DNA of 64,000 nt, from assembly GCA_044376085.1 (NCBI GenBank), contig JBILLN010000009.1, positions 524-64,523 on the forward strand, read 5' to 3'. Shown here in pieces: positions 14,633 through 57,866 of this stretch. The stretch's first letter is position 1. Each line of letters begins with the position of its first letter. The position numbers were made by a program, and so were the translations under genes. The notes below the pieces were generated by a model. The model was given only the letters and a program-made list of their open reading frames with translations, made no database searches and was not told where the DNA came from. This stretch comes from Bradymonadia bacterium. Lineage in GTDB: Bacteria; Myxococcota_A; Bradymonadia; UBA7976; UBA1532.

Positions 14633-14679
14633 CGGTCATCCTGAGGTGCGGGGCGCCTTGCAGGCCGCAAAGCGCGCGG

Positions 14680-14708: not shown

Positions 14709-14873
14709 GTCGGGCACGGCCGGGGGGAGCGAATGCGTCGGTTCGCCCGGATTGATCGACGTCAAATCGTCGCCCCTCAAGCGATCCGGTGACTTTCACC
14801 GTACCCTCGGGAGAAGGCACCCTCCGCGTCGGGGAAACGCGGAAGGGGACCCCCCCGCCCGCGTCGGAATCCC

Positions 14874-39200: not shown

Positions 39201-39793
39201 GCGACCGACTCGTAGCCCGGGTGGTGGAAGAGCAGATCGTGCGTGCCCTCCGCCAATGCCAGGTGGAACTGTCCGTCCGAGCCGCTGACGGCCGCGTAGG
39301 GCGTGTTGCGGGCCTCGATCACCGTCCCGCCGTGGAGACCCTCCCCGGCGCCGGCCAGCCGCACCGTCCCTTCGACCGCGGCGCCGACATCCGGCACCAG
39401 CGTCAGGGGGTCGAGGACCACGTCCTGCCCGATGGCCAAGACGATCGTGGCCGGCTCGGCGCGGAAGCCCGCCAGGAGGGCCGTCACTTCATAGGCGCCC
39501 GCCGGGACGTCGCCGAAGACGAAGGTGCCGTCCCCCTCCGGCGCGACCTGTTGGTCGGCGGCCTGAAGCCCAGAGAGTGAGGTGAGGCGGACGACGATCT
39601 CCGCAGAACGGGCAGGATCGAAGGGCTCGGGCAGGCGGACCGTGCCCCGGATGCCCCCCTTGGCCTGCTGGGCCGAGGCCGTCTCGGTGTCATAGGGGTT
39701 GCCGGGCCCGATCTCGGCGCACCCGAGAAAGACGAGCAGCCCACAGAGCACCCGAAGAACACGCCGAAGATACGGGGGACGGAGGACGGTCAT
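33290..39793 (-). CDS. Giant (2167 aa) surface/lipoprotein: carboxypeptidase-regulatory-like beta-sandwich array, pentapeptide repeats and a PPC-like domain
   Basis: ATG 39793. Signal LRVLCGLLVFLGC. More than 12 repeats of the G.V.L...G.HGGT.IEA.GTPY...T...G.Y.L....G type. C-terminal third holds A(D/N)LxG pentapeptide runs (ANLSGADLSGAVLTAADFTGANLRGAVL). Confidence 0.85.
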   Translation of the reverse strand: MTVLRPPYLRRVLRVLCGLLVFLGCAEIGPGNPYDTETASAQQAKGGIRGTVRLPEPFDPARSAEIVVRLTSLSGLQAADQQVAPEGDGTFVFGDVPAGAYEVTALLAGFRAEPATIVLAIGQDVVLDPLTLVPDVGAAVEGTVRLAGAGEGLHGGTVIEARNTPYAAVSGSDGQFHLALAEGTHDLLFHHPGYESVAIEGFVVGPRALVRLPEAVQLVGAPGTVSGSVALSGYDDPEALLEVAVRLTPAGAPDADVLDETVPTVPDGGFTFSGLPAGRYRLVTSARGFTEDTREVTLPVGEHVEVGRIWLFPPREDSAPEKFGTLRGLAVLDSAAEGAHGGTRIEARGTPYWTETVSDGTYELRVPEGGYDLVFLHAGYGTEALSGLQVSPQSVTDAPPVRLTGQPGRVGGQIRLAGFDDPVRLQGVEIAVWSGDADGAAPPTARTSPDGSGAFLLDGLGAGAHRLEFRAEGFVPERREIVLPVGGAIDLGIVSLFPPREDSAPEMFGTLRGVAVLDAAADGAHGGTRIEARGTPYWTETVSDGTYELRVPEGGYDLVFLHAGYGTEALSGLQVSPQSVTDAPPVRLTGQPGRVGGQVRLAGFDDPVRLQGVEIAVWSGDADGAAPPTARTSPDGSGAFLLDGLGAGDHRLEFRAEGFVPERREVVLPVGGALDLGIVSLFPPERADEPEFFGALEGRALLLGAAEGAHGGTRVEAVGTPYFTETTAAGQYRLTLPAGRVTLTFTRRGYGQASSEAVRVEAGATAAVPEVVLVGQPGVVRGRVSLPGLDDPARLRAVQVTLNLEDAPPGAEPLQQGAPGADGRFVFAGVAAGRFEVRATLEGFGPEVRSVALEVGEDADVGLMALTPLAPGWAEGTATLERAAGAVHAGITVEAAGTGYSAQTTAAGRYRLELPAGTWDLTYRRAGYRPETRASVRIRAGAGTDPGAVELQGELGRVRGALVFPDGYRVEEWAPRVRVVATPAGGAPLPAVVPGEDGRFEVDGLGLGDHWLAFELAGFTAPPLPVVLEVGQVLDLGFVRLDALQLPGVGETLLEGTVRRAGVADADGHGGILVEVDGTPHATVSTSEGRYRLTVTPGPSLLAFRAEGYGLQTVDLGFVTEGESRRVDDVLLVAQPGAVTGAVHLGRFETPGRLAAVTLSLFTEGPDGPLVATTRPDGDGRFALAGIGPGRYRLTAQATGYGAAEQPQALGPGQSLDAGTLLLVHGSETPDAVLLSGRVRLAGAVDHGGTTIRADLAGTALTLGRTVTDAAGAFTLPAAPDEAYVLHVQRAGFVAPAPFGPLSWDPADARFETAAGAPAELDLDRPPPTGRIQVTVEVGPHWVKPVDRAVSVRLDGPGLSRVVAGVRDGPAGGTTFEALPAGEYWLHVERPGFSLAERSVTLAEGASEAVVLAIGLQSLPEARLDTLGVRLTRADLDAAAAAGTVFAGGRLAGVDLSGQDLSGLALPGGWAGVDFSFANLAGTGLVGQSLPGAVFFSANLSGADLSGAVLTAADFTGANLRGAVLGRGAAPATPCAGAGHAPIDLAEALFTQTDLSGAYLEGVWLRGANLSSALLAGVHATRACLAEADLSLSNLTGATFDRANLNSANLSLSNLTGAIFDRAYLSGANLINSNLTRASMKAVNLEGAQLQGAVLDRTRLGCDVPPLVDDDFCADRFEPNQDAAHAAALPVGSTRNLGLCAPNDLADHFTFTATAAREIEVVVSRYEDPVLTRLIYEEDGFAQQLGVTVTLTLPNNTSVSGRTRARTTYNGVGLQTFRVSVTRQAFPGNAVIRLPYELTIRTRDNRNNWTRVADPAACSTLRGANLSGAVLSGADLDGADLSSANLVGLMAGDANYDAFMPRPIDCLELDAVCPPSADANCETAFAHVDDGCFVWRTRLTDATLRSANLAGATLDHVDLRGAWFGRVKMRGVSCPQCSLTGARFDASEVGTAAILDRVDLSGNVLAGVDFTHARLEQAMLDGTFVVETRFDSAHLGGASFDACYLRDSRLTGALVTGTQFTDCELTDVDAGNTWASDLGGGPSFRGSNLTRAHFAGAVWSDDRNSGPDFGDATLIDSDFNDLGGNGRCGLYAASFSRAFVLRTNFAACDLQYGIFAGTSFGSSNFSGANLRWVTGPVASFLGNTLSAATLCPNGQRPAGNPLTCAFP
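37745..38854. repeat. Direct tandem duplication, 2 x 555 bp, about 97% identical, inside the giant gene
   Basis: Line-by-line comparison of 37745-38299 with 38300-38854 shows only scattered mismatches. The period equals 185 codons, so the frame is preserved. Confidence 0.85.
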
Positions 39794-40175
39794 GGGTGAA
39801 TCCTCGACCGCGCGCGGGTCGGGAACACACCCGGGCTGCCGCGGCGGCGTCGACGAGCCGGAATGTCTGCCGCTGGCGACCGCTCGGCGTGCAACGGACT
39901 CGACCTTCCGGCGAGTCGTCACAGGGTCGCGCGACGGTTCGGGTCGACGGTAGGCGTGGGTCCGGGGAGCGTCAACCCGTGGCGGGGTCACGCATCTCAC
40001 CGGTCACACCGCCTCCGGCGCGGAACCCATTGAATCAACTCATGAATTCGCCCAATCTGCCGAACTGGCCATTGACCTCGATCAAGCGACACACGACGAC
40101 AGATCCGAATTCGTTGCCGGGTGGCACACGTGTATGGGATGGGCAGGGTCCGGGGGAGCAATGGGAGGTGTGCAC

Positions 40176-40773: not shown

Positions 40774-41112
40774 ATGAACGCGAAACGGTGGATCCGATGC
40801 CTCGTCGCGGGCGCCGCGGCGGTCTTGTTGGCAGCCTCGGCGGCGGACGCGAAGCCGCCGCCCGGCGATCCGGGACGGAACGGCCACGGGAGCGTCTACA
40901 GCATCAACGACCCGGTCGCGAGGCTTCCGTCCGCCACCACCTCGGTCGTCACCAGCCTCGATCACGTGGGTGTCCGCAAGGTGATCGAGGTCGTTCAGCA
41001 GCAGGTCCTGGTCATCAAGACGCTCGGCAAGTCGACCGGCGAGAAACTCGTCATCGAGGCCAAGGTCCACGCCGCGAAGGCGGAGCCCTCTCCGATGCCT
41101 GCGCCGAAGTGA
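40774..41112 (+). CDS. Hypothetical small secreted protein
   Basis: AAGGAG SD (40761-40766). Signal peptide MNAKRWIRCLVAGAAAVLLAASAADA. The 3' end overlaps the convergent kinase gene by 62 nt. Confidence 0.55.
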   Translation: MNAKRWIRCLVAGAAAVLLAASAADAKPPPGDPGRNGHGSVYSINDPVARLPSATTSVVTSLDHVGVRKVIEVVQQQVLVIKTLGKSTGEKLVIEAKVHAAKAEPSPMPAPK

Positions 41113-44100
41113 CGGGGGCCCACCGTCGCCGCTCGAGGGCGGGTTCCGCGCCGAGCGTCCGCAGTTCGGTCTCGAGGGACGCGGTCGGTGTCCCGGTCAG
41201 CGTGGCCAGGGCCAGTCGGGTCACGGCACTCTCGTAGGCGTCGCTCGCCGCCACCCGCACGACGGCCGCCTCGAGCAGTGCGCGCGCGGCGGCCGGGCGT
41301 CCCGAGGCGGCCTCCACCAGGGCGCGGACGCGCGCGGCGTGGGCGTCGGCCGCCGGTGACCCCGTGAGCCTCGCCTCGACCACGCCGCGGTCGGCCTGCT
41401 CGGCCGCACGCGCCCGGTCTCCCCGACGAAGGGCCACGCGAGCCAGACCGCCGCGGGTCTCGAAGAGCACGCCCCGCGCGCGGCAGCGCTCGGCCAGCGC
41501 GGCCGAGGACTCGAACGCCGCCTCGGCCTCGTCGAGGCGGTCCTGGTCGAGGCGGATCAGGCCCAGGTTGTTCGCCGCGATGACACGTCGGGTATCGATG
41601 CCAGCCAGCGCGGCCAGCTCCAAGGCGGCGTTCGTCTGTTGGGCGGCCTCCTCCAGTCGACCCCGGTTGTGGAGACAGACCCCGAGGTTGATGTGACCCC
41701 GGATGCGACCCGCCGTGTCCCCCGCCTCGGTCGCCAGCGCCAAGGCCCGTTCGTTCGCGGCGAGCTGATGGTCCCAGCGGCCCGCGCGCAGCTCGACGGC
41801 CCCGAGGTTGGACCACGTCTGGGCAGCCACCGCCGGAGCGTCCAGCTCGCCGAGCAGGCGGAACGCCGCCTCCACGTCCGCACGGCCGGCGTCCGGTCGT
41901 CCGAGCACGTACCCGACGAGCCAGCCGCGCCGCCCGAGCAGCAGCGCGCGCATGATCCGGTCCCCGCCGGACCCGAGCTCGTCGAGGGCGGCGTCGAGGT
42001 GGTGCACGGCCAGCGCGTGCTCGCCGCCCGTCCAGTGGATCTCGGCGAGCAGTCGCCGCGCCTCCGCCCGGACGAGCGAGCGGCCCGGCTCGTTCCGCAG
42101 GAGGGCGCGAGCGGCCCATCGGCCGGCGTCGTCCATCTCACCTTGCTCGAACGCGGCGCGGGCGCCCGCCACGAGCAGGCCGGCCACATCGACGGGCAGC
42201 TCCCGCGGGAACGCCGCGTCGGGCTCGGCCAACGCGGGCCACAGGCGGTCCAGCTCGGCGACCACGGCGCGGTAGATCTCCAGCGCACCGGGGACGTCAC
42301 CCTGAACCTCCAGGCGCCGGCCGGCCCGGAGATGCCATGCCATTGCCCGGCGCCAACGGCCCGACGCGCGGCAGAGTTCACCGAGCGCCCGCAGACCCAG
42401 GGGGGTGAGCGCAGCGGCCCGCGCGTCGAGCCACGCCTCGGCGGCCACCTGCACCCCGGTCATCTCCTCGACCGGACACTCGGCCCGCAGGGCCCGGCGT
42501 TCCTCCCCCCCCGCGAACTGGAGCGCAGCCGTGCCGGCCACGACGGCGACGTGGGTGGTCACCAGATGGCGTCCCGCGAGCAAGCGGTCGATGTCTTCCG
42601 GCGCCCCACCGACCGCCTCGAGCAACGCCCGGGGAAAGATCTCGCCCAGGCAGGCGGCCATCCTCAGCGTTCGGCGGGCTCGCTCGTTCGGGACCCCGGC
42701 GATGCCCGACGACCCCTGGGGCACCGATTCCACCGCCGCGAGCGAGAGTCGCTCGACGGCGCCCTCGGCGTCGCCGGGTGGTGCGAGCTCGGCGAGCAGG
42801 GCCGGAGCCTCGCACAGGCGCTCGGCGGCGAACGCCAGGAAGCGCCGGACGCGGGACCGTGTCGTCTCGCCCCCGCCGAGCAGAACCAGCACGGGCCGTC
42901 GCTTCGCCAGTGTCTCCACGAGGCGCATGAGCAGGACGACCTCGTCCGGCGGTGGACACAGCGCGGGGGCGAGGGTGAGCTCGTAGGCGTCCCGCTCCCC
43001 GGCGAACCCGGCCATCTCGCGGGCGAGCGCCGGCTCCGCGGCGAGGTCGTCCGGTGCCCCGGGCCGACGCGCCTCCTCCGCGGCCCGGGCGGACCAGCGG
43101 CCGAGCGCATCTCCGAAGGGGCCACGGGACCGCGGCGCCCCGGCGGCCGACGCGTCGACCCCCGCGCCCCCGACCAGGCACGCCCAGCCTTCGGCCTCGA
43201 GCGCGCCGACCCAGCCCGAGGCGAGCGCGTCGCGTCGCTCACCGGGCGTGCCGACCAGGGTCAACCGCGCCGCCCGACCGGAGGCGGCCACCGCCCTGGC
43301 CCGCTCCACCAGCCCCGCGAGGGCCTCGGCCGTTCGGCCGGTGAGCTCGTGGCCGGCGAGCTCGGGGGTCAACTCGACCGCCGTGGCCTCGCCGAGCGCC
43401 GTCGGCGAGACCGCGAGCAGCATCGTGGGCTGCGCGACCTCGACCGTCTCGCGCGGGGCAGCCGATGGGACGGGATGATCGGTCCGCCGCAGGATGTCCG
43501 CGAGCTCGGCATCCACGGCCGAGGCGCTCGGCGGGCGGTCGAGCGGGTGAGTCGCCAGCAGCCGGGCGACGAGCTCGGCCAGGCCCGGCGGGAGGGGGCG
43601 GTCCGGCGCCGCCACCAGGGGCGGGGCGGGGGCCCGGGTCTTGGCGACGATCACCTGCAACGGCGGACCCTCGAACGGCAGTCGGCCCGCGAACGCCTGA
43701 AAGATCATCACGCCGAGCGCGTACAGGTCCGCCTCCGGGCCCACCGGGCCGCCCCGCGCCTGCTCCGGCGCCATGTAGGCCGGCGTTCCCGGCACGCCCC
43801 GCCGACCGTCGTCTCGGCCGCCGTCGGCGCCCAGCGTCTGGGCCGGAGCGATGGTCGCGATCCCGAAGTCCATGAGCCAGGCGTGGGGCGCACCCGAGGC
43901 CGACGTCGCCACGATGACGTTCTCGGGTTTCAGATCGCGATGCACGACGCCCCGGTCGTGGGCGTACGCCAGCGCGTCGAGGAGCTGCCGAACGACGACG
44001 AGGCGCGCCGGCGCCGACAGCTTCGGGAACACCTCGTTCAGGGAGCGCCCGGTGATCCGCGGCATGGCAATCCAGAGCAGGTCGCCGACCGTCCCCCACG

Positions 44101-44374
44101 CCTCGACCCCCACGATGTGCGGATGCCCGAGTCGCGCCGCGGCCTGGATCTCGTGGAGACCCGTCGGATCCCCCGGGACCGTGCGCAGAAGCTTCACCGC
44201 GAACGAGCGCGCGTCCTCCGCGCGCGTCGCGGCATGGACCACCCCCATGCCCCCCCGGCCGAGGAGGTCGCCGAGGCGGAAGGGGCCCACGTGTTCGACC
44301 GGTGGGGTCGCCGAAGCGGCGCCCGTCGGCGTGCGGCCGTCGGCCGGAGGACCCTTCTTTGCGGCGTCCGTCAT
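41051..44374 (-). CDS. Ser/Thr protein kinase fused to a degenerate STAND/AAA-like region and TPR repeats
   Basis: GRGGMGVVHAA...FAVKLL, HRDLKPENV, DFG and GTPAYMAPE. Then LVGTPGERRDAL where related kinases have a Walker A motif. The C-terminal half has TPR-like Ala/Leu-rich repeats. ATG 44374 is preceded by GGGAG. Confidence 0.9.
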   Translation of the reverse strand: MTDAAKKGPPADGRTPTGAASATPPVEHVGPFRLGDLLGRGGMGVVHAATRAEDARSFAVKLLRTVPGDPTGLHEIQAAARLGHPHIVGVEAWGTVGDLLWIAMPRITGRSLNEVFPKLSAPARLVVVRQLLDALAYAHDRGVVHRDLKPENVIVATSASGAPHAWLMDFGIATIAPAQTLGADGGRDDGRRGVPGTPAYMAPEQARGGPVGPEADLYALGVMIFQAFAGRLPFEGPPLQVIVAKTRAPAPPLVAAPDRPLPPGLAELVARLLATHPLDRPPSASAVDAELADILRRTDHPVPSAAPRETVEVAQPTMLLAVSPTALGEATAVELTPELAGHELTGRTAEALAGLVERARAVAASGRAARLTLVGTPGERRDALASGWVGALEAEGWACLVGGAGVDASAAGAPRSRGPFGDALGRWSARAAEEARRPGAPDDLAAEPALAREMAGFAGERDAYELTLAPALCPPPDEVVLLMRLVETLAKRRPVLVLLGGGETTRSRVRRFLAFAAERLCEAPALLAELAPPGDAEGAVERLSLAAVESVPQGSSGIAGVPNERARRTLRMAACLGEIFPRALLEAVGGAPEDIDRLLAGRHLVTTHVAVVAGTAALQFAGGEERRALRAECPVEEMTGVQVAAEAWLDARAAALTPLGLRALGELCRASGRWRRAMAWHLRAGRRLEVQGDVPGALEIYRAVVAELDRLWPALAEPDAAFPRELPVDVAGLLVAGARAAFEQGEMDDAGRWAARALLRNEPGRSLVRAEARRLLAEIHWTGGEHALAVHHLDAALDELGSGGDRIMRALLLGRRGWLVGYVLGRPDAGRADVEAAFRLLGELDAPAVAAQTWSNLGAVELRAGRWDHQLAANERALALATEAGDTAGRIRGHINLGVCLHNRGRLEEAAQQTNAALELAALAGIDTRRVIAANNLGLIRLDQDRLDEAEAAFESSAALAERCRARGVLFETRGGLARVALRRGDRARAAEQADRGVVEARLTGSPAADAHAARVRALVEAASGRPAAARALLEAAVVRVAASDAYESAVTRLALATLTGTPTASLETELRTLGAEPALERRRWAPVTSAQASERAPPSRRGPWPR

Positions 44375-44617
44375 CCTGCTCCCGGGACGAACGACGGCAC
44401 GAGACATCCGGTCCTCGACGCCCGCCGTCGTTCGGCGTCGCGGCGCCCGGGGCAGGGCCCTGACGGTCCGGTCCGGCTGACCCGAACGGTCTTTCGCGTA
44501 CCACGGTCGGGGATGCCGGACAACGAGCCCCACGCCGTCCGCGACTGGGCGACCGACGTCGCGTGACGCGGGTCAAGTCGCCCCTGCGCTTCGTGGAGGG
44601 CACCCGCGCGACACCTC

Positions 44618-44642
44618 GGAACTTTTCCGGTGATGCCGCGTT
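44618..44642 (+). promoter_or_regulatory. ECF-sigma-type promoter candidate (GGAAC-N16-CGTT)
   Basis: GGAAC (44618-44622), a 16-nt spacer, then CGTT (44639-44642). About 50 nt upstream of ATG 44693. Confidence 0.3.
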
Positions 44643-44692
44643 CCAAGGCGAGTAGTTCTGGACACGGTCGATTCATCGGAAGGTGAGGGGAC

Positions 44693-47600
44693 ATGAGCAC
44701 GCAGCGTTTGCGGCCGGAGGCTCGAGCGAATCACGATGCGTTCGCCCGGACGGGCCACGGCCAGGCCTTGCGCGATTGGCTCGGAGCGCATGGTGGGGTG
44801 TGCGCCGCGCTCCTGAGGGACGCCGGCGCGCCCGATCCGGACGCCGCCCTGGTGACCAGCCTGTCCGGGTTCTTGGCCCGGCGTCACCGGAATCCGGACG
44901 CGCAGTGGCCGCTGGACCTGCTGCGGGCGCTCTTCGATGCGGCCCCGACCGCCACGGCCGGCGAGCTCGGCCGCCGGGCGCTCGCCCTCGCCGGGCGGAT
45001 CGGGCTCGACCTCGACGGCCTCGCCCACGTGCTGCGGCGGCCCCACGACGAGGTCCGGGCCGCGCTCTCGTCGACGTGCCATCGCCTGCTGCCGTCGGAG
45101 CGCTCGCTGGTCGACGGTGCGTTTCACCCGAGTCCCGAAGACCGGATCGCGCTGGCGACGGGGACGCTGCCCGCGGCCCATCTCCCGGCCGTCTCGACTC
45201 ACCTGACGACGTGCACCGCCTGCCGCGTCGACGTGGAGGCCGTGCGCGAGGTCGTCGCCCGGGCCCTGCCGGAAGCGACGGCGACCCTGGCCCCCGAGCT
45301 CGTGGACCGGGTCGTTCAGGCCGCCCTCACGGCGCGCCTGGCCCATGCCGCGGTGCCCCGCGCGCTGCGGTTCACCGGCCTGACCCCCGGCGCGCCCCGC
45401 CGGCCGCTCCGGCTGGGCATCGTGGGCGTGCTGGCGCTGCTCACGCTGGTCACCGGCGTCACCTGGGCCTGGCAGGCCCGCCTCGCCGCGCAGACCATCG
45501 AGACCGAGCTCGTGCTCCTCGACGCGCCCGAACTGCTCGCGGGGGCCTCGACGGCCGTCTCCGTGCAGCTCCGCCCGGTACCATCCGCCGAGGCCCCGAC
45601 CGCGCCCCGAAACCCGCCCGAACCGACCGAGGTGCGCGTCGTCCTGCGGGGGCCGGCCGGTCGCGAACTGGCTCGTGGAGCGGTGAAGACCGACGCGAAC
45701 GGCCTCGCCATCGTGCCCCTGACCGTCGGCGGTCTCGACGAGGGGCAGGTCTCGGCCTCCCTGGAAGCGGAAGCCGACGTCGACGGCGAACGCCGCCGGT
45801 TCTCGACCCCGGTGAACGTCGTCCGGCGCCTGCGACAGGTGATCTCGGCGGACAAACCGACCTACCAGCCCGGCCAGACCGTGCATCTTCGCGGCCTGAG
45901 CCTGGACGAGGGCAGCGGCAAACCCCTCGCCGGCCGGCCCGCCCGCCTCGAACTGCGGGATCCGCGCGGCAACCGGCTCGTCGACGTCCAGACCACCGTC
46001 TCGCCCCATGGCGTGACGGCCACCGATGTCGAACTTTCCGCCGGGGCCGCGCTCGGCCGGTACACCGCGCGGCTGATTCTCGAGGGCCAGAACGGCACCG
46101 CCGAGACGAGCTTGCTCGTCGAACGCTACACCCTGCCGCCGTTCGCGGTCTCCGTGAAGGCCGGCGTGCCCTCGACGGACGGGCGCGAGCCCTTCGACGT
46201 GGACGTCGAGGCGAAGTTCACCACCGGCGTGCCGATGGCCCGGGGCATGGCCCGCCTGACCGTCTTCGCCGACGGCCAGGAGGTCTTTACCGGCACCCGC
46301 CGCATCGAAGCCGGCAAGGCCCGCCTGACGGTGCGCCTGCCCGACTGGCTCGCCTCGCAGACCTACCGTCCGCCGACGACGCTGGTGCTGCACGCCGCCG
46401 TGCGGGACCCGGCCGGCCGCGCCGAGGAGGGCCGCGGGGGCCTCGAACTCCAGGGCGACGCGATGACCGTGACGCTGCTGAGCGAGGCGCCGAGCGTGCG
46501 CCGGTCCCTGCCGCGCCTGAACCGCCTCATCGTGCGCACGCAGCGACCGGACGGCACGCCGGTCTCCGCCCCGGTCGTTCTCTTCTCGCCCGGGGAGGGC
46601 GAACTCGAAACCGTCGGTGCGGGCGAGCGCCTCGGCGAGACCACGACCAACGCCGACGGTCTCGCCTTCCTGGACCTGCCGACCGCCTACTTCGGCCGCC
46701 CGCTGGCCGTCCTGGCGACGGATCCGCAGGACAGGAAGGCCTACTGGACTTCGATGCCGGCGCCGGCCATGCGGGAGGGCGCCCTGGTGCTCGGCTGCGA
46801 GAAGGCCCTCGTGCGGGCCGGTCGGCCGCTGCGCTGCGAGGTCTTCGTGCCCTCGCCGCGCGCGCGCACGGTGCGTGCCGAACTCGGCGGGCGGATCATC
46901 GCCCTGGCCGCCACCCCGGCCATGCAGGGCATCTATCCGGTCGAGCTCGCCCTGCCGGCCAGCGCGCCCGGCCTCGTCCGCATCACGATGGAGGACGCAC
47001 CGACGGAGGATGCGGTGCACGTCCTCGTGGCCCCCCACGACGGCCTGCGCATCGAGCTCTCTGGCCTCGACGGCACGCGCGAGCCCGGCGCCGAGATCGG
47101 CCTGGGCCTGAAGGTCACCAACGCCGCCGGTCAGCCCCGGGCGGCCAGCGTCGGCCTCGCCGTGGTGGACGCGGCCGTCTTCGCCCGCGTGGCCGGGGCG
47201 ACGCCGAAACAGATCATCTCGCGGCTCTTCGAGCAGCCGGGCCTCGCGCCCGCAGGCATGGCGCTGCTGTTCGCCGAGCGCACCGAGAGCGGAGGCGCGC
47301 CCGATGCCGACCCCTGGTCGGCCCTGCAGCAGACCGAGGCGCGGTGGCTGCTGGCCGGCGCGCGGGCCCCGGTCGCCGCCGTCCGCACCGGTTCTTCGCT
47401 GCCGAGCGATGCCATGGCGCTCTCGAGCCGGATCTGGTCGGCCCGCAGCACCGCGCAGACGTCGTTGGGTCTGACGATGCTGGCCTTCACGGCCGCCCTG
47501 CTGCTCACGTTCCTGGTCGTCTCGTTCTGGTTCCGGGCGACGTTCGTGGCCCTGTGCGCCGCGCTGTTGACGGCCGTCGGCCTCAAGTTCCTGCTCGGTG

Positions 47601-50335
47601 AGGTGCTCGACGTGCGGGCGCAGACGGTGGACCCCGTGGCGCTCCTGCTCGGGCTGTTCGCCTTCGCCGGGGTGATCTTCCTGGCCCGGGGGCGGCGCGG
47701 CGAGATCGCTCGGGGGGTCGTGCGCGGCGGGGGCTGGCTCAACTGGGCGGCGCCCGTCGGGGCGCTGGTCGTGCTGCTGGGGCTGATGACGCTGGGTACG
47801 CGGCGGTACGAGAAGGCGTACGCGCCGTCGGCGACCAGCGCCTCGGACGGCCCGGGGTACTTCGCCGAGAAGGCCGAAGAGGGCCGCATGGGCGATGCGT
47901 CGCCGAAGTCCGTCGCCGCCGCGCCCGTCCCGGCCCCGCCGGCCCCCGCCTCCGAGGCACCGACCGGCGGATTCTCCGAAAACCAGCGGTTCTCGGCCAA
48001 GGGGGTCGCGGGTGGCGGTCGACGAACGGGCATGGGGTTCTCCCTGTCGGCCCGCGACGAGGCCGAAAGTGCCCTCCAGGGTCGTTCCGGCGAGCGGGTC
48101 GCCGCCGAGGCCGCCCCCAAGGACGCCGCCGCGGCCGAGCCGCTGGTGGCCCTGCGCCAGGAGTTCCCCGAGACGCTCTACTTCAACCCGGCGGTGGTCG
48201 TCGGCGAGGACGGGCGGGGCGAGGTCCGGTTCCGCGCGGCCGACTCCATCACGACCTGGGAGGCCTACGCCCTGGCCAGCGACGCGGGGGGCCTGCTCGG
48301 CGCCGGGTCCGGTCGGTTGGTCGTCCACAAGCCCTTCCACGTCGATCTCGACGTCCCCATGGACCTGACCGTCGGCGACGACGTGACGCTCCAGATCGCC
48401 GTCTCGAACGACCGCGACGTCCCGGGGTCCGCGCGCCTCACGGCCACGGCGGATCGCGGCCTCTCGCTCGACGTGAAGCCCCTGGAGGCCCCCGTCGCCC
48501 TGGCCGCCCGCGGGCTCGCCGGCCGGTTGGTCGACCTGAAGGCCGTCGCCGCCGGCGAGCTCGCGGTCACGCTCTCCGGCGAGCTGCTGGGCGGTGGCGC
48601 CGGCGCGAAAGACGCCCTGAAGCGCCCCATCTCGGTCAGCCCCGACGGGCGCGAGGTGCAGCAGACGTTCTCGGGCCTGGTGGTCGACTCGGTCCAGCGC
48701 ACCATCGACCTGCCCGCCGACGCCTTCCCCGACGGCAGGTCCGTGGTGCTCACGCTGCTCGGGAGCCCGCTGGCGGCGGCGCTCGACGGGCTGCACCTCC
48801 TGACTCGCGCGCCGCGCGGCGCCTTCGAGCAGCAGCTCTCCACCGCGTACGCCAATGCGCTCATCCTGCAGGCGCTGCGGGCCACCGGCCGCATCGACCA
48901 GGCCCAGGAGTCGCAACTGCTGCGGTTCCTGCGCCTGTCCTACCAGGACGTCCTCGGGTACGAGTCGCCCGGGGGCGGGTACTCGGAGTTCGGCGGGGCC
49001 ATGCCCGTGCGCACCGTGTCGACCGCCTACGGCCTGATGGTGCTCTCGGAGCTCGGCCGGTTCACCTACGTGGACGCCGACGTCGTCGCCCGCGCCCGCT
49101 CGGCGCTGCTGCGGGCCCAGGTCGCCGACGGCGGCTTCGCCGGGCCGACCGAGACGGCCTTCGTGGCGCTGGCGCTGGCGACCCACGACCCCGAGTGTCT
49201 CGCCACGGAGGACCCGCAGAAGCCGTGGGGACCCGAGCTGCGCCTCGCCCGCGAAGCCTGCCGCAAGGTGTTCGCCCGCCTGAGCGACGCCTTCGCGCGG
49301 GTCGAGGGGGTCGATCCCTACACGCTCGCGCTCGCCGCCGACGCCCTCGTGCTGGGCGGACCGACGCATCGGACCCGCGCCGAGAGCCTGCTCGACGAGC
49401 TCGACCGGCGTGCTGCGGTGGTGGGCGAGGGCCGGTACCGCCGCGTGACGTTCCAATCCCGCTCCGCCTCGCTCTACGGCGCCCGGGGTCGGGCCGCCGA
49501 GGTCGAGACCACCGCGCTCGTCACCCACGCGCTCGTCACCCACGGCGGGCGACAGGACAAGGCCCGCGAGGCCCTGCGCTCCCTCCTCGTGCTGCGCGAC
49601 GATGGGGGCGGGTTCCATTCGGCGCACGGCACGGCCCTGGCGCTGCGGGCGCTGCTCGCCGCCGCCCGGGGCGGCCAGGCGGGCGGGCGGGCGCGCGTGC
49701 AGCTCGACGGCACCGAGGTGGCACTCGTCGAGTTCGACCCGGTCAACATCAACGAACCCCGCCGTCTGGACCTGACGGACAAGGTCCGTCCCGGCGCCGC
49801 GCTCACCCTTTCCGTGGACGGCTGGGACGGCGCCGCGGACCTCGCCTACAGCCTGACGACGCACCACTTCGAGCCGTGGACGCGACCGCCCGCCCGCCCC
49901 GTCAGCGCCCCGGGCGACGACGCGGTCTGGATGGCGGTGCGGCAGTCGATGGACGCGCCGAGCTACGGGCTCGGCGACACCGCCGAACTGACCGTGGACA
50001 TCGACCGCTACGGCGGCCGCGCGGCCAACGGTCTGCTCATCGCGCAGATCGGCCTGCCCCCCGGGTTCCGGACGGCCCCCGACGCCTTCGAATCCGGGGT
50101 CATCGGTCCGACTCTGCGCGTCGAACCCGCCGCGCGGGGGCTGACGGTCTACCTCGACGACCCCGGGATGGGCCGCACGACCCTGACGGTGCCCCTCGTG
50201 GCCGCCCGCGCCGTGCGCCGCGTGGTCGTGCCGCGCAGCCGCGTCTACTTCGCCTACCAGCCGTATATCGAAGCCCAGGCCGCCCCGGTCCCGGTCTTCG
50301 TCAAGCGACTGCTCGGCGACCGTACCGGCGGCTGA
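44693..50335 (+). CDS. Anti-sigma (HxxxCxxC) / TM / alpha-2-macroglobulin-like fusion protein, thioester Cys absent, internal 4-TM insertion
   Basis: SD GGAAGGTGAGGGG. HLTTCTAC at aa 170-177. TM at aa 241-259. MG-type repeats (DKPTYQPGQTVHLRGL). A2M core FPETLYFNPAVVV...DSITTWEAYALA. Thioester context LTRAPRGAFEQQ. Confidence 0.85.
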   Translation: MSTQRLRPEARANHDAFARTGHGQALRDWLGAHGGVCAALLRDAGAPDPDAALVTSLSGFLARRHRNPDAQWPLDLLRALFDAAPTATAGELGRRALALAGRIGLDLDGLAHVLRRPHDEVRAALSSTCHRLLPSERSLVDGAFHPSPEDRIALATGTLPAAHLPAVSTHLTTCTACRVDVEAVREVVARALPEATATLAPELVDRVVQAALTARLAHAAVPRALRFTGLTPGAPRRPLRLGIVGVLALLTLVTGVTWAWQARLAAQTIETELVLLDAPELLAGASTAVSVQLRPVPSAEAPTAPRNPPEPTEVRVVLRGPAGRELARGAVKTDANGLAIVPLTVGGLDEGQVSASLEAEADVDGERRRFSTPVNVVRRLRQVISADKPTYQPGQTVHLRGLSLDEGSGKPLAGRPARLELRDPRGNRLVDVQTTVSPHGVTATDVELSAGAALGRYTARLILEGQNGTAETSLLVERYTLPPFAVSVKAGVPSTDGREPFDVDVEAKFTTGVPMARGMARLTVFADGQEVFTGTRRIEAGKARLTVRLPDWLASQTYRPPTTLVLHAAVRDPAGRAEEGRGGLELQGDAMTVTLLSEAPSVRRSLPRLNRLIVRTQRPDGTPVSAPVVLFSPGEGELETVGAGERLGETTTNADGLAFLDLPTAYFGRPLAVLATDPQDRKAYWTSMPAPAMREGALVLGCEKALVRAGRPLRCEVFVPSPRARTVRAELGGRIIALAATPAMQGIYPVELALPASAPGLVRITMEDAPTEDAVHVLVAPHDGLRIELSGLDGTREPGAEIGLGLKVTNAAGQPRAASVGLAVVDAAVFARVAGATPKQIISRLFEQPGLAPAGMALLFAERTESGGAPDADPWSALQQTEARWLLAGARAPVAAVRTGSSLPSDAMALSSRIWSARSTAQTSLGLTMLAFTAALLLTFLVVSFWFRATFVALCAALLTAVGLKFLLGEVLDVRAQTVDPVALLLGLFAFAGVIFLARGRRGEIARGVVRGGGWLNWAAPVGALVVLLGLMTLGTRRYEKAYAPSATSASDGPGYFAEKAEEGRMGDASPKSVAAAPVPAPPAPASEAPTGGFSENQRFSAKGVAGGGRRTGMGFSLSARDEAESALQGRSGERVAAEAAPKDAAAAEPLVALRQEFPETLYFNPAVVVGEDGRGEVRFRAADSITTWEAYALASDAGGLLGAGSGRLVVHKPFHVDLDVPMDLTVGDDVTLQIAVSNDRDVPGSARLTATADRGLSLDVKPLEAPVALAARGLAGRLVDLKAVAAGELAVTLSGELLGGGAGAKDALKRPISVSPDGREVQQTFSGLVVDSVQRTIDLPADAFPDGRSVVLTLLGSPLAAALDGLHLLTRAPRGAFEQQLSTAYANALILQALRATGRIDQAQESQLLRFLRLSYQDVLGYESPGGGYSEFGGAMPVRTVSTAYGLMVLSELGRFTYVDADVVARARSALLRAQVADGGFAGPTETAFVALALATHDPECLATEDPQKPWGPELRLAREACRKVFARLSDAFARVEGVDPYTLALAADALVLGGPTHRTRAESLLDELDRRAAVVGEGRYRRVTFQSRSASLYGARGRAAEVETTALVTHALVTHGGRQDKAREALRSLLVLRDDGGGFHSAHGTALALRALLAAARGGQAGGRARVQLDGTEVALVEFDPVNINEPRRLDLTDKVRPGAALTLSVDGWDGAADLAYSLTTHHFEPWTRPPARPVSAPGDDAVWMAVRQSMDAPSYGLGDTAELTVDIDRYGGRAANGLLIAQIGLPPGFRTAPDAFESGVIGPTLRVEPAARGLTVYLDDPGMGRTTLTVPLVAARAVRRVVVPRSRVYFAYQPYIEAQAAPVPVFVKRLLGDRTGG

Positions 50336-50405: not shown

Positions 50406-51323
50406 ATGCCCGACGACGACGACCGAGAGAACACCGACGGCGAGCCCCACAGCGTCTCGTCGGTGGTCCGCAAGGACAACGGCGACATCCACATCGCCAT
50501 CACCATCAACAACAACAACAGCAACGACCGCGGGGCGACGATCTCCGGGGACGAAATCGGCGACGAGTACGGCGGCGGCGCTCCGGCGGCCTCGGCCCAC
50601 GTCCATCCCGCAGCCGGCCCGGGCTTCGCCCCGACGCTCGACGCGGCCGTGCCGTCGCCCTTCGTGCGCGGCGCCCTCGACGACGCCTTCGCCGCGGCTC
50701 CGGTCTACACCAAGGGTCTCGCGCCGTTTTCGGCGGACCCGGCCGCGACCGGCGAACGCCCCACCGCGCGGCTCACCGTCGGCGGCCTCGTCGCGCACGG
50801 GCGAGCGGCCCTCTTCACGCCGGCGCGCGTTCACGAGGCGCTGGCCATCTACCAGGGTCTCTGCATCGTGGAGGTCGGGGCCGGCAACGCCCCGGACACC
50901 GTGACGCTCGTCCCCGGCCCCGCCTCGCCCGACGCCGTCTGGACCCATGCCGCCCACGCCCTGCGGACGGGCCTCGTCGGCGGCCACTACCGGCTCGCGG
51001 TCGCCCCCGCCCGCGAAATGAAGGGCAAACGCGGTGCCGGTGAAGCGGCCTTCGCGGTCACCCTGACCCCGGTCGGAGACCCGCTCGGCGGATTCCTCAA
51101 CGTCATCCCGGCCAAGGCGGCCGCCGTGGCGAGCCTCGAGGCCTACGGCGCGCGCGCCGCCTGCGTCCCGGTTCCGGCGAGCGGTGGCCCGCTGACCGTT
51201 CCGCGCCCGGCCGGGGCCGCCGACGACGACGCGTTCTTCTTCGTCGTCACCAGCACCCGCCCGGACGCCGTGTCTCCGCCGTTGCTCGAGGTGCGCTCCA
51301 ACGTCGCCTGCGTGGGTCCCTGA
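50406..51323 (+). CDS. Hypothetical protein (acidic, Asn-rich N-terminus, no signal peptide)
   Basis: GGAGA SD 7 nt upstream. 305-codon ORF. No recognised motifs. Confidence 0.5.
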   Translation: MPDDDDRENTDGEPHSVSSVVRKDNGDIHIAITINNNNSNDRGATISGDEIGDEYGGGAPAASAHVHPAAGPGFAPTLDAAVPSPFVRGALDDAFAAAPVYTKGLAPFSADPAATGERPTARLTVGGLVAHGRAALFTPARVHEALAIYQGLCIVEVGAGNAPDTVTLVPGPASPDAVWTHAAHALRTGLVGGHYRLAVAPAREMKGKRGAGEAAFAVTLTPVGDPLGGFLNVIPAKAAAVASLEAYGARAACVPVPASGGPLTVPRPAGAADDDAFFFVVTSTRPDAVSPPLLEVRSNVACVGP

Positions 51324-57154: not shown

Positions 57155-57179
57155 TGAGTACCCGGAAGACGATCTCTCG

Positions 57180-57866
57180 ATGCTCGCCCTCGTCCTGATG
57201 GTGTTCGGCCGCCGCGCGTCCGGTGACTCGCCCGGCCGCCCGTCCGGCGACGCGGACGAGGATCTGATGGAGCGCTTCCGGGACGGCGACGCGCGGGCCT
57301 TCGAGGTGCTCCTCGAACGGCACGAGCGAGGCGTGTTCCACTTCATTCTCCGGTTCGTGCAGGACCGCGAGCTGGCCAACGATCTGCTGCAGGAGTGCTT
57401 CCTGCGGGTGGTGAAGAACGCGAAGAGTTACAGCCGCAAGGCACGGTTCACGACATGGCTCTACACGATCGCCCGCAATCAGTGCATCGACGCCGCCCGC
57501 AAGGCCCGGCATCGGCGCGCGGACAGTCTGGACGCCCCCGTGGCCGGTGATCCCGACGGCCGCCCCCTGGGCGAGACCATCGCCGGCCACAGCGACGCCG
57601 GTTTCGAGCGGACGGACGCGCGTGAAATGAAGACGCGCATCGAAGCCGCCATCGCCCAGTTGAGTGACGAACAACGAGAGGTCTTCGTGATGCGCGAACT
57701 CATGCAGCTCCAGTTCAACGAGATCGCCGAGATCGTCGGCATCTCCGAGAACACCGTGAAGAGCCGCATGCGCTACGCTCTCGAAAACCTGCGCCTGCGC
57801 CTGGCCGACTACGCGCCCGACGTGCCCAACGCCGCGGACCCCGTCGCCGCGCGCCACCGAGCCTGA
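57180..57866 (+). CDS. ECF (RpoE-like) sigma-70 family factor
   Basis: Region 2 (FEVLLERHERGVFHFILRFV...DLLQECFLRVV...FTTWLYTIARNQCIDAAR). Region 4 HTH (QREVFVMRELMQLQFNEIAEIVGISENTVKSRMRYAL). Start could be 57117, 57180 or 57198. Confidence 0.88.
   Translation: MLALVLMVFGRRASGDSPGRPSGDADEDLMERFRDGDARAFEVLLERHERGVFHFILRFVQDRELANDLLQECFLRVVKNAKSYSRKARFTTWLYTIARNQCIDAARKARHRRADSLDAPVAGDPDGRPLGETIAGHSDAGFERTDAREMKTRIEAAIAQLSDEQREVFVMRELMQLQFNEIAEIVGISENTVKSRMRYALENLRLRLADYAPDVPNAADPVAARHRA

Follow-up and report, generated by a model that had tools for sequence, protein, structure and literature searches.

Pairs of ECF sigma and anti-sigma factors are a major signalling system of bacteria, and to our knowledge the stimuli of most of them are unknown. 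The zinc anti-sigma (ZAS) factors, such as ChrR of Rhodobacter sphaeroides, RslA, RsiW, and RsrA, share an N-terminal four-helix domain with the zinc site H-x24-HxxxCxxC; in their membrane forms a single transmembrane (TM) helix follows this domain, and the known sensors respond to redox, singlet oxygen, or envelope stress and not by way of an alpha-2-macroglobulin (A2M). Membrane anti-sigmas are usually inactivated by regulated intramembrane proteolysis (PMC8999054). Sigma and anti-sigma can also be joined in one chain, as in IutY of P. putida (ECF243), SCO4117 of S. coelicolor (ECF52), and the ECF48/53 groups, in the order sigma, anti-sigma, TM, extracytoplasmic sensor; the anti-sigma part of ECF48/52/53 is a ZAS domain, and proteolytic activation has been proposed or shown for such fusions, IutY and SCO4117 among them (PMC8999054). 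In PhyR, from the general stress response of alphaproteobacteria, the ECF-sigma fold is degenerate and its binding partner is an anti-sigma factor and not RNA polymerase.

Bacterial A2Ms have, as far as we know, been regarded only as passive protectants of the envelope, and the A2M family also has non-inhibitor roles, in complement and in CD109. The bacterial proteins ECAM/YfhM, SaA2M, and MagD have a common MG-BRD-MG7-CUB-TED-MG8 body that faces the periplasm at the inner membrane, where they protect the envelope (PMC5764988, PMC4498604, PMC3735191). Cleavage of the bait leads to a conformational change of the A2M by bait retraction (PMC9352918).

The protein described here is encoded at positions 44693-50335 (+ strand) of a 64,000-nucleotide stretch of a Bradymonadia contig (JBILLN010000009.1), referred to as the window. 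It is best explained as a derived representative of the A2M-type anti-sigma factors, a family that is widespread but has yet to be characterised.

Reading frame, relatives, and domain order

The gene is a single ORF of 1880 codons and a stop, uninterrupted as the sequence-only reading had described it, and ATG 44693 is the first start codon past the upstream stop. Third positions of the frame have a GC of 0.85-0.99 over the entire ORF, the N terminus and the internal hydrophobic cluster included, and falls to 0.5-0.6 immediately past the stop, a pattern that indicates one coding frame and neither a high-GC artefact nor a frameshifted pair. At least nine full-length orthologues from uncultured Myxococcota (42–83% identity) have the same architecture, and the same fusion is present in independent assemblies from NCBI, ENA, JGI, and Logan; the fusion is therefore not unique to the window protein. 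It had been stated that characterised bacterial A2Ms are not known to be fused to cytoplasmic anti-sigma modules. This is correct for characterised A2Ms and for the searchable literature, in which no paper on anti-sigma-A2M fusions was found, but many proteins with both zf-HC2 and A2M are present in databases under the automatic names 'anti-sigma factor RsiW' or 'zf-HC2 domain-containing protein', and in metagenomes such fusions are common, with automatic annotation only.

The order of zinc anti-sigma domain, TM helix, and A2M given by the sequence-only reading was confirmed and is kept among the orthologues. Hydropathy agrees that nothing hydrophobic precedes residue 241, where TM1 begins (aa 241-260, nt 45413-45472; N-in by hydropathy, AF2, and loop charges). 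TM1 is the one TM helix that had been recognised (aa 241-259), but the total is five, and the product is best explained as a predicted five-pass inner-membrane protein. In the domain searches suggested for this ORF, the MG2, A2M, and TED_complement matches are significant, whereas zf-HC2 (E 0.015-0.06) stays below the Pfam cut-off for the single window sequence.

The cytoplasmic region

Residues 1-135 (nt 44693-45097) comprise a degenerate, compacted domain derived from an ECF sigma factor. In the AF2 model (pLDDT 90, pTM 0.79), in which the N-terminal 260 residues form one confident unit, sigma2-like helices are located at residues 8-20, 23-43, 49-61, and 69-82 and sigma4-like helices at residues 89-103, 107-114, and 118-132. 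By hhalign the domain is collinear with bona fide ECF sigmas of A2M operons (probability 89%, E 2e-6) and also matches the separate small gene of the relative L005 (94%, E 2e-7) and P0076, a protein with Pfam Sigma70_r2, r4_2, and zf-HC2 matches (97%, E 6e-11). The helix-turn-helix reminiscent of sigma region 4 that had been noted is thus sigma-related, but it is only a part of a region that is sigma2-sigma4-derived over all of its 135 residues.

Although homologous to ECF sigma factors, as judged from these alignments, the domain is not an intact sigma. Relative to the operon sigmas, it lacks ~45 residues, which cover the sigma2-sigma4 linker and region 4.1, and the connector between the two parts is only ~6-10 residues in the AF2 model. 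Residues 1-260 gave no Pfam sigma match, even at E<=10, and no NCBIfam sigma match. At the recognition-helix position the consensus is RxxxExVxxAM as compared with GTVKSRM, and the conserved basic and Thr/Ser residues are absent. The domain is among the least conserved of the folded parts (35% pairwise identity), and its length is held narrowly among the orthologues (128-135 residues). Sensible Foldseek matches of the N-terminal model are restricted to PhyR, CnrH, and SigW; PhyR structures are at the top, with poor E-values (>0.1) that signify a weak likeness and not membership. The loss of the linker and region 4.1, of the Pfam sigma signatures, and of the thioester Cys (see below), together with the fusion of the sigma part, suggests a tethered pseudo-sigma, that is, a PhyR-like mimic or occupant of the anti-sigma domain that would not recognise promoters. 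By analogy with PhyR it may bind the anti-sigma domain, but in contrast to PhyR the window protein has no receiver domain and carries mimic and anti-sigma domain on one chain. It differs likewise from the IutY/SCO4117-type proteins, whose bona fide sigma2/sigma4 domains are recognised by ECF models and whose FecR-like or carbohydrate-binding sensors are combined with one or two TM helices, whereas the window protein has a compacted domain under every Pfam sigma threshold, an A2M, and five TM helices.

The segment that follows (aa 144-215, nt 45122-45337) can be assigned to the ZAS/ChrR-type anti-sigma domains by its motif and by significant similarity. Direct reading bears out the HxxxCxxC motif reported at residues 170-177 (nt 45200-45223), and a further His lies ~25 residues before it; the four predicted zinc ligands, His145 (nt 45125-45127), His170, Cys174, and Cys177, are invariant in 10 sequences. 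The NCBIfam model of the ChrR-family N terminus matches with E 1.3e-5, and the best PDB sequence match of the orthologue profile is the ChrR anti-sigma domain (E 2.5e-7). A search of 1.84 billion representative proteins gave 542 matches, and among the best 150 of these most matches outside the A2M-fusion family cover the anti-sigma part only; five such proteins were scanned with Pfam, and zf-HC2 was found in all five, above the cut-off in four. AF2 places four helices in the domain, at residues 148-155, 161-173, 175-191, and 201-227, and its length among orthologues is 69-75 residues. The juxtamembrane segment between this domain and TM1 (aa 216-240, nt 45338-45412; PRxLRFxGLxPGAxxRPxRL) is the best-conserved cytoplasmic segment, with 62% mean pairwise identity and 11 invariant residues, and its net charge of +5 fits the cytoplasmic side. 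The position of TM1 is that of the single TM helix in membrane-bound ZAS factors. Unlike these, the window protein has a sigma-derived domain fused in cis, an extracytoplasmic A2M of ~1600 residues, and four further TM helices.

The A2M body and its bait region

The remainder of the protein had been called A2M-like, and Pfam, PDB profiles, and AF2/Foldseek agree. Residues 261-900 (nt 45473-47392) are the periplasmic MG1-MG6 half, with a Pfam MG2 match at residues 384-472 (E 6e-16), weak matches to MG3, MG4, and BRD, beta-sandwiches at residues 699-826 in the AF2 model, and profile similarity to the N-terminal MG domains of human A2M, C3, and TEP1. After the bait region follow MG7 (Pfam A2M, aa 1161-1244, E 1e-12) with the first half of CUB (aa 1153-1345, nt 48149-48727), the TED domain (aa 1346-1660, nt 48728-49672; Pfam TED_complement, aa 1350-1654, E 6e-27), and the second half of CUB with an MG8/receptor-binding-like beta domain (aa 1661-1880, nt 49673-50332; pLDDT ~90). 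With this domain order the protein is a member of the A2M/thioester-containing protein superfamily. By sequence it is much nearer to metazoan A2M, A2ML1, and CD109 than to YfhM: in the PDB profile comparison human A2M gave E 3e-54, and for YfhM E is 1e-13. In Foldseek searches with the entire C-terminal model, the matches to native-state A2ML1, CD109, and A2M have E-values of 2e-40 to 1e-35, and TM-scores are 0.48-0.51 to native A2ML1, CD109, A2M, TEP1, and SaA2M as compared with 0.21-0.31 to protease-induced forms, so that the body is predicted to be in the native, spring-loaded conformation.

The thioester-site context that had been pointed out is present, but the Cys is replaced: the site is degenerate, Gly1376-Ala-Phe-Glu-Gln1380 (nt 48818-48832), and reads GAFEQ, GSFEQ, or GTFEQ in the clade of the window protein. 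Relatives outside this clade, more distant ones among them, keep the Cys, as GCAEQ in P0009 and as GCFEQ in P0010, P0011, P0034, P0042, L015, and L027. Loss of the thioester weakens covalent trapping, and the window protein could have stopped acting on proteases. MagD (type II) also has no thioester. The protein does not belong to the bacterial type I A2Ms (ECAM/YfhM/SaA2M), as it lacks a signal peptide or lipobox, the thioester Cys, and a pbpC/PBP1C neighbour, and, judging from the descriptions of its neighbouring genes, it is probably no member of a six-gene magABCDEF operon like type II either. ECAM/YfhM, SaA2M, and MagD do not have its TM anchor, TM hairpins in the bait, or cytoplasmic sigma/anti-sigma module. 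The best matches in sequence and fold are the eukaryotic A2M, A2ML1, CD109, TEP1, and C3/C5, with which it shares the native-state-like body and an insert at the bait/ANA position and, in the case of CD109, which modulates signalling, also attachment to the membrane; it differs from them in being prokaryotic and membrane-integral, with a cytoplasmic transcription-factor module and no thioester Cys.

The insert consists of the four TM helices that had been overlooked (aa 923-1036, nt 47459-47800) and a linker of 116 residues (aa 1037-1152, nt 47801-48148). The hydropathy of the TM cluster is retained in all orthologues, loop charges fit an out-in-out-in-out path, and AF2 builds helices at residues 904-943, 945-971, 976-1006, and 1014-1042 with pLDDT 66-87; no Pfam family matched them. 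ZAS-A2M relatives have TM hairpins at the same position in even number (2 or 4 helices), and we found no report of TM hairpins within the bait region of any A2M-family protein. The linker, rich in A/G/S/P/E, is disordered (pLDDT ~30) and hypervariable, with a mean pairwise identity of 19% and lengths of 93-124 residues as compared with 56–63% identity in the A2M domains. It ends where the post-bait sequence of human A2M aligns, at residue ~1155 (VRKYFPETW to RQEFPETLY). Helices and linker therefore appear from alignment and model to occupy the position of the bait (A2M) or ANA (C3), and the linker is a candidate bait with predicted susceptibility to proteases. The presence of these four helices changes any mechanistic model.

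Gene context, mechanism, and alternatives

In nine of nine canonical relatives with the order anti-sigma domain, TM, A2M (P0034, P0042/L006, L015, L017, L018, L027, L105, L106, and L107, from Myxococcota and Planctomycetota), an ECF sigma gene lies directly upstream on the same strand, usually with an overlap of 4 bp. Like the genes of ZAS factors, those of the canonical A2M-type anti-sigmas directly follow an ECF sigma gene, and they are translationally coupled to it. In two split intermediates, L005 and L011, the sigma-like domain is a separate gene of ~137-157 codons directly upstream of the A2M gene; the frame of the L011 gene ends 4 bp inside the A2M ORF, and the L005 product has a weak PhyR_sigma-like Pfam match. 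P0058 and P0060 are further small proteins of this separate type. No ECF sigma gene adjoins the fused orthologues in any contig examined, and their gene neighbourhood varies; in the window, too, no separate sigma is adjacent to the A2M gene, the sigma-derived domain being fused instead. This context strongly supports the earlier proposal of a connection between an A2M trap and an ECF sigma, and the protease and relay steps of that proposal form part of the mechanism that we infer below.

Upstream of the gene, at 44618-44642 (+ strand), is a candidate ECF-type promoter, GGAAC-TTTTCCGGTGATGCCG-CGTT, in which a -35 GGAAC and a -10 CGTT are separated by 16 nt; it lies ~50 nt before ATG 44693. The exact 14-mer GAACTTTTCCGGTG followed by N6-CGT[AT] is located upstream of the orthologous gene in the window, L001, L004/L007, L012, and L052, whereas the surrounding intergenic DNA cannot otherwise be aligned between orthologues. 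The motif occurs once in the window, and nowhere but at this gene, as compared with 0.05 occurrences expected by chance. Its shape and conservation are best explained by a conserved ECF-type promoter that drives the A2M gene. A strong Shine-Dalgarno-like sequence, GAAGGTGAGGG, is at 44679-44689, and orthologues have GGAGGGTGAG or GGGAGGCAGAG at equal distance from the start. The same promoter motif is also found 24 nt upstream of L068, the gene of an unrelated sigma-ZAS-TM fusion.

We favour, with a probability of roughly 55%, the interpretation as an A2M-type anti-sigma factor that senses proteases, here as a derived single chain with a tethered pseudo-sigma. In the cytoplasm, the ECF-sigma-derived domain would be held in cis by the ChrR-type zinc anti-sigma domain; in the periplasm, a full A2M-family protease trap would have two TM hairpins at the position of the bait, and after them the ~115-residue disordered, hypervariable linker. 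Any endoprotease entering the periplasm could cut the exposed linker and so cause the A2M conformational change, and after the cut the last hairpin helix, which is oriented N-in/C-out as in RseA, may keep no more than a short stub on the periplasmic side. Either a rearrangement of helices or intramembrane proteolysis would then carry the signal through the membrane to the anti-sigma domain, altering sigma availability. Because TM1 keeps the large MG1-6 domain after bait cleavage, simple RseA-like intramembrane proteolysis of TM1 is not expected. The degenerate sigma-like domain and its connector of ~6-10 residues make the output of the pathway in the clade of the window protein hard to predict.

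A bolder generalisation, which we regard as speculative and rather unlikely in its full form, is that of a general bacterial 'protease alarm' with the spring-loaded A2M body as receptor. The promiscuous bait just past the TM hairpin would provide a universal site-1 cleavage site, and cleavage there would expose the last hairpin helix to intramembrane proteolysis in the manner of RseA. In the clade of the window protein the fused pseudo-sigma would serve as a built-in PhyR-like mimic; a free ECF sigma would have to compete with it for the zinc anti-sigma domain of the same chain, and proteolysis in the periplasm would thereby operate an intramolecular partner switch.

It is improbable, although worth serious consideration, that the protein is a one-component ECF sigma, in which a working N-terminal sigma is tethered to the membrane, released by proteolysis, and transcribes its own gene among other targets. 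The collinear homology to sigma2-sigma4, the lack of a separate sigma gene near the fused orthologues, and the ECF-type promoter directly upstream, a typical signature of autoregulation, would all fit, as would the L068 fusion that follows the same motif and the precedents of IutY and ECF48/52/53 (PMC8999054). Against this stand the absence of any Pfam Sigma70_r2 or r4 signal at E<=10, the ~45 missing residues, the recognition-helix position without its basic and Thr/Ser residues, and the low conservation of the domain; moreover, in the established holoenzyme geometry, the connector is too short for sigma2 and sigma4 to span their separate sites on RNA polymerase.

Somewhat less probable still is a purely protective membrane-anchored trap, with the sigma/anti-sigma module a relic that serves as a folded cytoplasmic anchor and gives no signal. 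The sigma part is degenerate and has no adjacent sigma gene, and ECAM, SaA2M, and MagD do protect the envelope at the inner membrane (PMC4498604, PMC3735191, PMC5764988). A relic should decay or vanish, but the four zinc ligands and 11 residues of the juxtamembrane segment do not vary among orthologues of 42–83% identity, the N-terminal 260 residues are a confident unit with conserved domain lengths, and it is the covalent trapping device, the thioester, that has been lost instead. This loss, the non-inhibitor roles in the A2M family, and the large surface or repeat proteins and divergent Ser/Thr kinase encoded nearby could point to a sensor of something other than proteases, with an A2M/TEP-like body that lacks the thioester and would bind a surface, a ligand, or a partner protein, and with a linker that is only a spacer; this is quite unlikely, given a predicted fold in the native trap state, a linker that resembles a bait in its position, its disorder, and its hypervariability, and GCFEQ kept in close relatives. 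Spurious long ORFs do arise in high-GC DNA, and the opposite strand here holds one of 1983 codons, but the idea of a chance frame in DNA of 74% GC, or of separate genes joined through a chimeric or frameshifted assembly, is refuted by the codon-position GC of this frame, the significant domain matches, and the search for and alignment of orthologues from independent assemblies.

The A2M-type anti-sigma family, to return to the favoured interpretation, looks like an undescribed route by which bacteria convert a protease attack on their envelope into a transcriptional signal. If this is true, a complete A2M acting as an anti-sigma sensor would for the first time connect protease trapping directly with bacterial transcription and would be a prokaryotic analogue of the 'guard' logic of innate immunity, and it would offer a generic, testable input (any endoprotease) for orphan ECF systems of Myxococcota and Planctomycetota. 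The fused compacted domain would be the second candidate, after PhyR, for a sigma fold reused as an anti-sigma ligand, and the modular design could serve in engineered protease-responsive gene switches.

Within the window, the ECF sigma gene at 57180-57866 (57117-57866 in our annotation) had been suggested to encode the partner sigma. This is unlikely because its own membrane-spanning candidate anti-sigma follows 3 nt later (57869-59425), and it does not share the promoter motif. The neighbours of the A2M gene are the divergent Ser/Thr kinase gene and a gene of unknown function for a 305-residue protein, and many genes for large surface or repeat proteins are present in the neighbourhood.

Reading frame and orthologues

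The open reading frame at 44693–50335 (+) runs for 1880 codons without interruption, and its ATG at 44693, preceded by GAAGGTGAGGG, is the earliest start codon after the in-frame stop upstream. Codon-position composition was checked because the window, at ~72% GC, has long ORFs on both strands, including one of 1983 aa antisense to the α2-macroglobulin (A2M) gene over the same region. In the frame of the A2M gene, GC3 is 0.85–0.99 and GC2 is 0.45–0.66 in every 300-nt window of codons 1–1850, and this coding pattern is lost directly past the stop codon; the antisense and other-frame ORFs have the inverse, non-coding pattern. A search of 5.8 billion proteins for the same fusion recovered nine full-length orthologues (1840–1912 aa, identity 42–83%, coverage 95–100%) from NCBI, ENA, JGI and Logan assemblies, and a full-length-alignment scan of GTDB genomes assigns the hosts to uncultured Myxococcota or Myxococcales MAGs. 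The single frame described in the sequence-only reading is thus borne out by a coding GC3 pattern along its whole length and by full-length orthologues, which together rule out a chance ORF or a frameshift. An artefact, to which the long ORFs on both strands and the antisense ORF would lend some color, is left with a negligible probability by a coding GC pattern confined to one frame and by orthologues from independent assemblies.

In the alignment of the 10 sequences, His145, His170, Cys174 and Cys177 are invariant, as are 11 residues of a juxtamembrane cytoplasmic motif, PRxLRFxGLxPGAxxRPxRL (residues 222–240). All 10 members also share the first transmembrane helix (TM1) and, at residues ~920–1040, four clustered hydrophobic helices.

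The anti-sigma and sigma-derived domains

The HxxxCxxC motif lies at nt 45200–45223, where the sequence-only reading had located it, within the zinc anti-sigma domain (residues 144–215). The accompanying expectation of a zf-HC2 match was disappointed with the single sequence: zf-HC2 is the only Pfam match to the isolated N terminus and is below threshold (E 0.015–0.06). The domain matches the NCBIfam ChrR-family N terminus (E 1.3e-5), and the orthologue profile finds the ChrR anti-sigma domain in the PDB (E 2.5e-7), with RslA and RsiW matching more weakly. His145 is aligned with His6 of ChrR, so that all four ChrR-type zinc ligands are predicted to be present. The N-terminal profile has 542 matches among 1.84 billion representative proteins; among the best 150 of these, outside the A2M fusion family, most align to the anti-sigma part only. 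All five of the non-family matches scanned with Pfam contain zf-HC2, above the cut-off in four of the five.

The AF2 model of the N-terminal region, computed from the 10-sequence alignment, is a single all-helical body (pLDDT 90, pTM 0.79) that comprises four helices at residues 8–82, three helices at residues 89–132, the four-helix anti-sigma domain at residues 148–227 and the TM helix. A helix-turn-helix stretch previously likened to sigma region 4 is indeed sigma-related but belongs to a larger sigma-derived unit, residues 1–135. Four lines of comparison show this unit to be a probable descendant of an ECF sigma. (i) P0076, a 220-aa database protein consisting by Pfam of Sigma70_r2, Sigma70_r4_2 and zf-HC2, was matched collinearly over profile positions 16–210 in the library search, and hhalign of the N-terminal profile with it gives a probability of 97% (E 6e-11, 188 columns). 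(ii) The domain profile is collinear with those of the bona fide ECF sigmas whose genes precede related A2M genes (probability 89%, E 2e-6), relative to which the window domain lacks ~45 residues, corresponding to the linker and region 4.1. (iii) In two split relatives, P0011/L005 and L011, the A2M protein begins directly with the anti-sigma domain and a separate gene of ~137–157 aa lies directly upstream, its reading frame in L011 ending 4 bp inside the A2M ORF; the product is homologous to window residues 10–134 (probability 94%, E 2e-7) and has a weak match to Sigma70_r4_2 (E 0.004). (iv) The sole biologically sensible Foldseek matches to the N-terminal model are PhyR, CnrH and SigW (probability 0.8–0.9), all with E>0.1 and used as supporting evidence only.

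The sigma similarity of residues 1–135 is seen only with better profiles. The N-terminal profile has no significant hhalign match to the window's own ECF sigma (57117–57863; probability 0.3%), and Pfam gives no sigma match to the domain even at E≤10. Judged by its sequence, the domain is therefore a sigma homologue that does not qualify as a sigma, which sets the protein apart from the ECF sigma factors. It is predicted to work like the ZAS anti-sigma factors, and in its fused form it resembles IutY and SCO4117 (PMC8999054).

The A2M body and the membrane-threaded bait position

The A2M-family matches anticipated by the sequence-only reading were recovered with significance and in order: MG2 at residues 384–472 (Pfam E 6e-16), A2M (MG7) at residues 1161–1244 (E 1e-12) and TED at residues 1350–1654 (E 6e-27). 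MG3, MG4 and BRD are weak Pfam matches. The protein belongs to the A2M superfamily, and its A2M body matches metazoan A2M, A2ML1, CD109, TEP1 and C3 with E 3e-54 to 1e-27, the match to Escherichia coli YfhM/ECAM being more distant (E 1e-13). The AF2 model of residues 681–1880 superimposes on native-state A2ML1, CD109, A2M, TEP1 and SaA2M with TM-scores of 0.48–0.51, as compared with only 0.21–0.31 for protease-induced forms. The thioester site is present, as had been proposed, but has lost its cysteine and reads G1376-A-F-E-Q1380. Members of the window clade have GAFEQ, GSFEQ or GTFEQ; the motif is GCFEQ in the other anti-sigma–A2M relatives and in the database protein P0010, and GCAEQ in P0009.

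The alignment with human A2M picks up again at VRKYFPETW, just after the bait, opposite RQEFPETLY of the window protein (residue ~1155), and the stretch from MG6 to residue ~1155 is therefore at the position of the bait (or of the C3 ANA domain). The single TM helix of the sequence-only reading is the earliest hydrophobic segment (residues 241–260), and four more follow downstream, at residues 904–943, 945–971, 976–1006 and 1014–1042 of the AF2 model (pLDDT 66–87). The loop charges obey the positive-inside rule for an out-in-out-in-out path, with a charge of +5 before TM1 and +4 in the loop 1000–1016. Pfam has no match in residues 936–1169. The linker that follows the helices (residues 1037–1152) comprises 116 residues rich in Ala, Gly, Ser, Pro and Glu and is disordered (pLDDT ~30). 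Pairwise identity in the linker is 19% and its length 93–124 aa, compared with 56–63% identity in the MG and TED domains; no other long stretch of the chain varies nearly as much. The predicted four-helix topology thus places both halves of the A2M body in the periplasm, and the disordered, hypervariable linker is bait-like.

At the bait position, other anti-sigma–A2M relatives have an even number of TM helices, either 2 or 4, and A2Ms that lack an anti-sigma domain have larger clusters. These include L016, a locus from Verrucomicrobia, and the proteins P0015, P0016, P0019, P0022, P0035 and P0039, with ~5–9 predicted hydrophobic (TM-like) segments, so that membrane threading of the bait region is not confined to the anti-sigma fusions. 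The window protein fits neither type I (ECAM/SaA2M) nor type II (MagD) of the bacterial A2M classes (PMC5764988), because it has no lipoprotein signal, pbpC or mag operon, or thioester and is closer to metazoan sequences.

Family context, candidate promoter and proposed signaling

An ECF sigma gene is immediately upstream, on the same strand, in nine of the nine canonical relatives examined, in which the anti-sigma domain is N-terminal: P0034, P0042/L006, three Myxococcales loci (L015, L017 and L018) and loci from Pirellulaceae (L027), Phycisphaerae (L105) and Sedimentisphaerales (L106), together with L107. In at least five (P0034, P0042/L006, L015, L106 and L107), a 4-bp overlap joins the sigma and A2M genes. 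The canonical arrangement is a classical sigma/anti-sigma operon, and these operons and the split relatives therefore define an evolutionary series from a separate sigma with an anti-sigma–TM–A2M protein, through a diverged small sigma-like gene beside such a protein, to the fused window protein. Within this family, the window copy is derived and partly degenerate. Proteins with zf-HC2 and A2M form at least 25 clusters among the top 120 matches to P0034; they are mostly from Planctomycetota, are common in metagenomes and have only automatic names ("anti-sigma factor RsiW", "zf-HC2 domain-containing protein"). P0209–P0224 (1005–1147 aa) have zf-HC2, MG2, MG3, BRD and A2M but no TED domain; either they are shortened forms of A2M-type anti-sigmas, or their genes are split in the bait/TM region. 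In L017 (4634–5134) and L018 (4583–5149), a conserved small ORF of ~166–188 codons, stop to stop, closely precedes the ECF sigma gene; its product has a hydrophobic, signal-peptide-like N terminus and may be a third component of the Myxococcales operons.

Among the neighbors of the fused orthologues, no partner gene, be it an ECF sigma or a protease, is conserved beyond close relatives. The ECF sigma at 57117–57866 (+), which has Pfam regions 2 and 4 and had been proposed as the partner, is followed after 3 nt by a candidate anti-sigma of 518 aa (57869–59425, +) with a ~95-aa cytoplasmic N terminus, one TM helix (residues ~98–117), a Pro/Ala-rich region and a C-terminal TPR, an arrangement common for cognate anti-sigmas. 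The sigma is consequently not an obvious orphan. Nothing in the analysis connects it with the A2M gene, and as the A2M promoter motif is also absent nearby, we judge the partnership unlikely; sigma and candidate anti-sigma look like a regular pair that stands apart from the A2M gene.

The candidate promoter GGAAC-TTTTCCGGTGATGCCG-CGTT (44618–44642) is ~50 nt upstream of the A2M ATG. A −35 element GGAAC/AGAAC, a 16-nt spacer and a −10 element CGTw give the motif the shape of an ECF promoter. The 14-mer GAACTTTTCCGGTG followed by N6-CGT[AT] is kept exactly upstream of the orthologues in L001, L004/L007, L012 and L052, whose proteins are 57–82% identical and whose intergenic regions are otherwise not alignable; the motif occurs once in the window, with 0.05 matches expected by chance. 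This conservation shows that some ECF sigma probably still drives the A2M gene. A relaxed search found no match upstream of distant orthologues, split forms or canonical operons, which limits the motif to the subclade of the window protein. In a metagenome scan, 67 of 69 matches were chance occurrences in unrelated, often low-GC DNA, and no regulon could be derived from the 69; the remaining two were L052, another orthologue, and L068, an unrelated high-GC metagenome contig. There, GGAACTTTTCCGGTG-N6-CGTT lies 24 nt upstream of a gene (291–1955) for a 538-aa one-component fusion of ECF sigma, ZAS, TM helix and a Ser/Thr/Ala-rich region, which may reflect a promoter specificity shared among sigma–ZAS fusions, or chance.

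We read the protein as a protease-sensing A2M-type anti-sigma whose clade carries a tethered pseudo-sigma, a functional assignment to which we give a probability of roughly 55%. The disordered periplasmic linker would serve as a promiscuous protease substrate, and when it is cut the spring-loaded body of the A2M would be released; the bait of human A2M, once cleaved, can withdraw from a central channel (PMC9352918). Since TM hairpins beside TM1 hold the bait at its N-terminal end, the event could be relayed to the anti-sigma domain, either by helix rearrangement via the highly conserved juxtamembrane motif or by leaving the last hairpin helix, N-in/C-out like RseA, with a short periplasmic stub. 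Helices of this kind are substrates of site-2 proteases by the general logic of regulated intramembrane proteolysis (PMC8999054). In the canonical family, the output would be release of the upstream ECF sigma.

Holoenzyme geometry requires a long σ2–σ4 connector. For the window clade, we favor a tethered, PhyR-like pseudo-sigma over a working sigma, because this connector and the sigma family signatures have been lost. The same losses make it rather unlikely that the domain is a still-functional one-component sigma freed by proteolysis. A purely protective trap, in which the sigma/anti-sigma module is a relic anchor, appears somewhat less probable again, and a sensor of something other than proteases is improbable. 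Full-text searches found no literature linking macroglobulins with anti-sigma or ECF factors in a relevant way; A2M is not mentioned in a review of non-canonical ECFs or in the ECF re-classification paper (PMC7826278) outside its supplementary tables, where an unremarked listing is possible. We rate the sensor as unprecedented for an ECF anti-sigma factor, and the TM hairpins in the bait and the transcription-factor module as setting the protein apart from known A2Ms.

Several other genes of the window were noted. Kunitz/BPTI domains are eukaryote-type serine-protease inhibitor modules that are rare in bacteria; three are present in an 890-aa protein (10453–13125, +; Pfam E 2e-57), whose gene is the second of protease-inhibitor type in the window. 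The 2236-aa product of 33290–40000 (−), with 13 CarboxypepD_reg-like domains and then long pentapeptide-repeat regions, is a very large protein of surface or repeat type. Divergent from the A2M gene, and sharing with it the 160-nt intergenic region that contains the candidate promoter, is a gene (41051–44533, −) whose 1160-aa product, a Ser/Thr protein kinase, has TPR/MalT-like repeats at its C terminus. The kinase does not recur as a conserved neighbor of the orthologues, and L001 and L004 have PP2C phosphatase genes upstream. Next after the A2M gene, 50406–51323 (+) encodes a 305-aa protein that has no Pfam match and could be co-transcribed with it; an unannotated 307-aa gene (13911–14834), likened to it by size and place alone, occupies the same position in L004, the contig of the closest orthologue.
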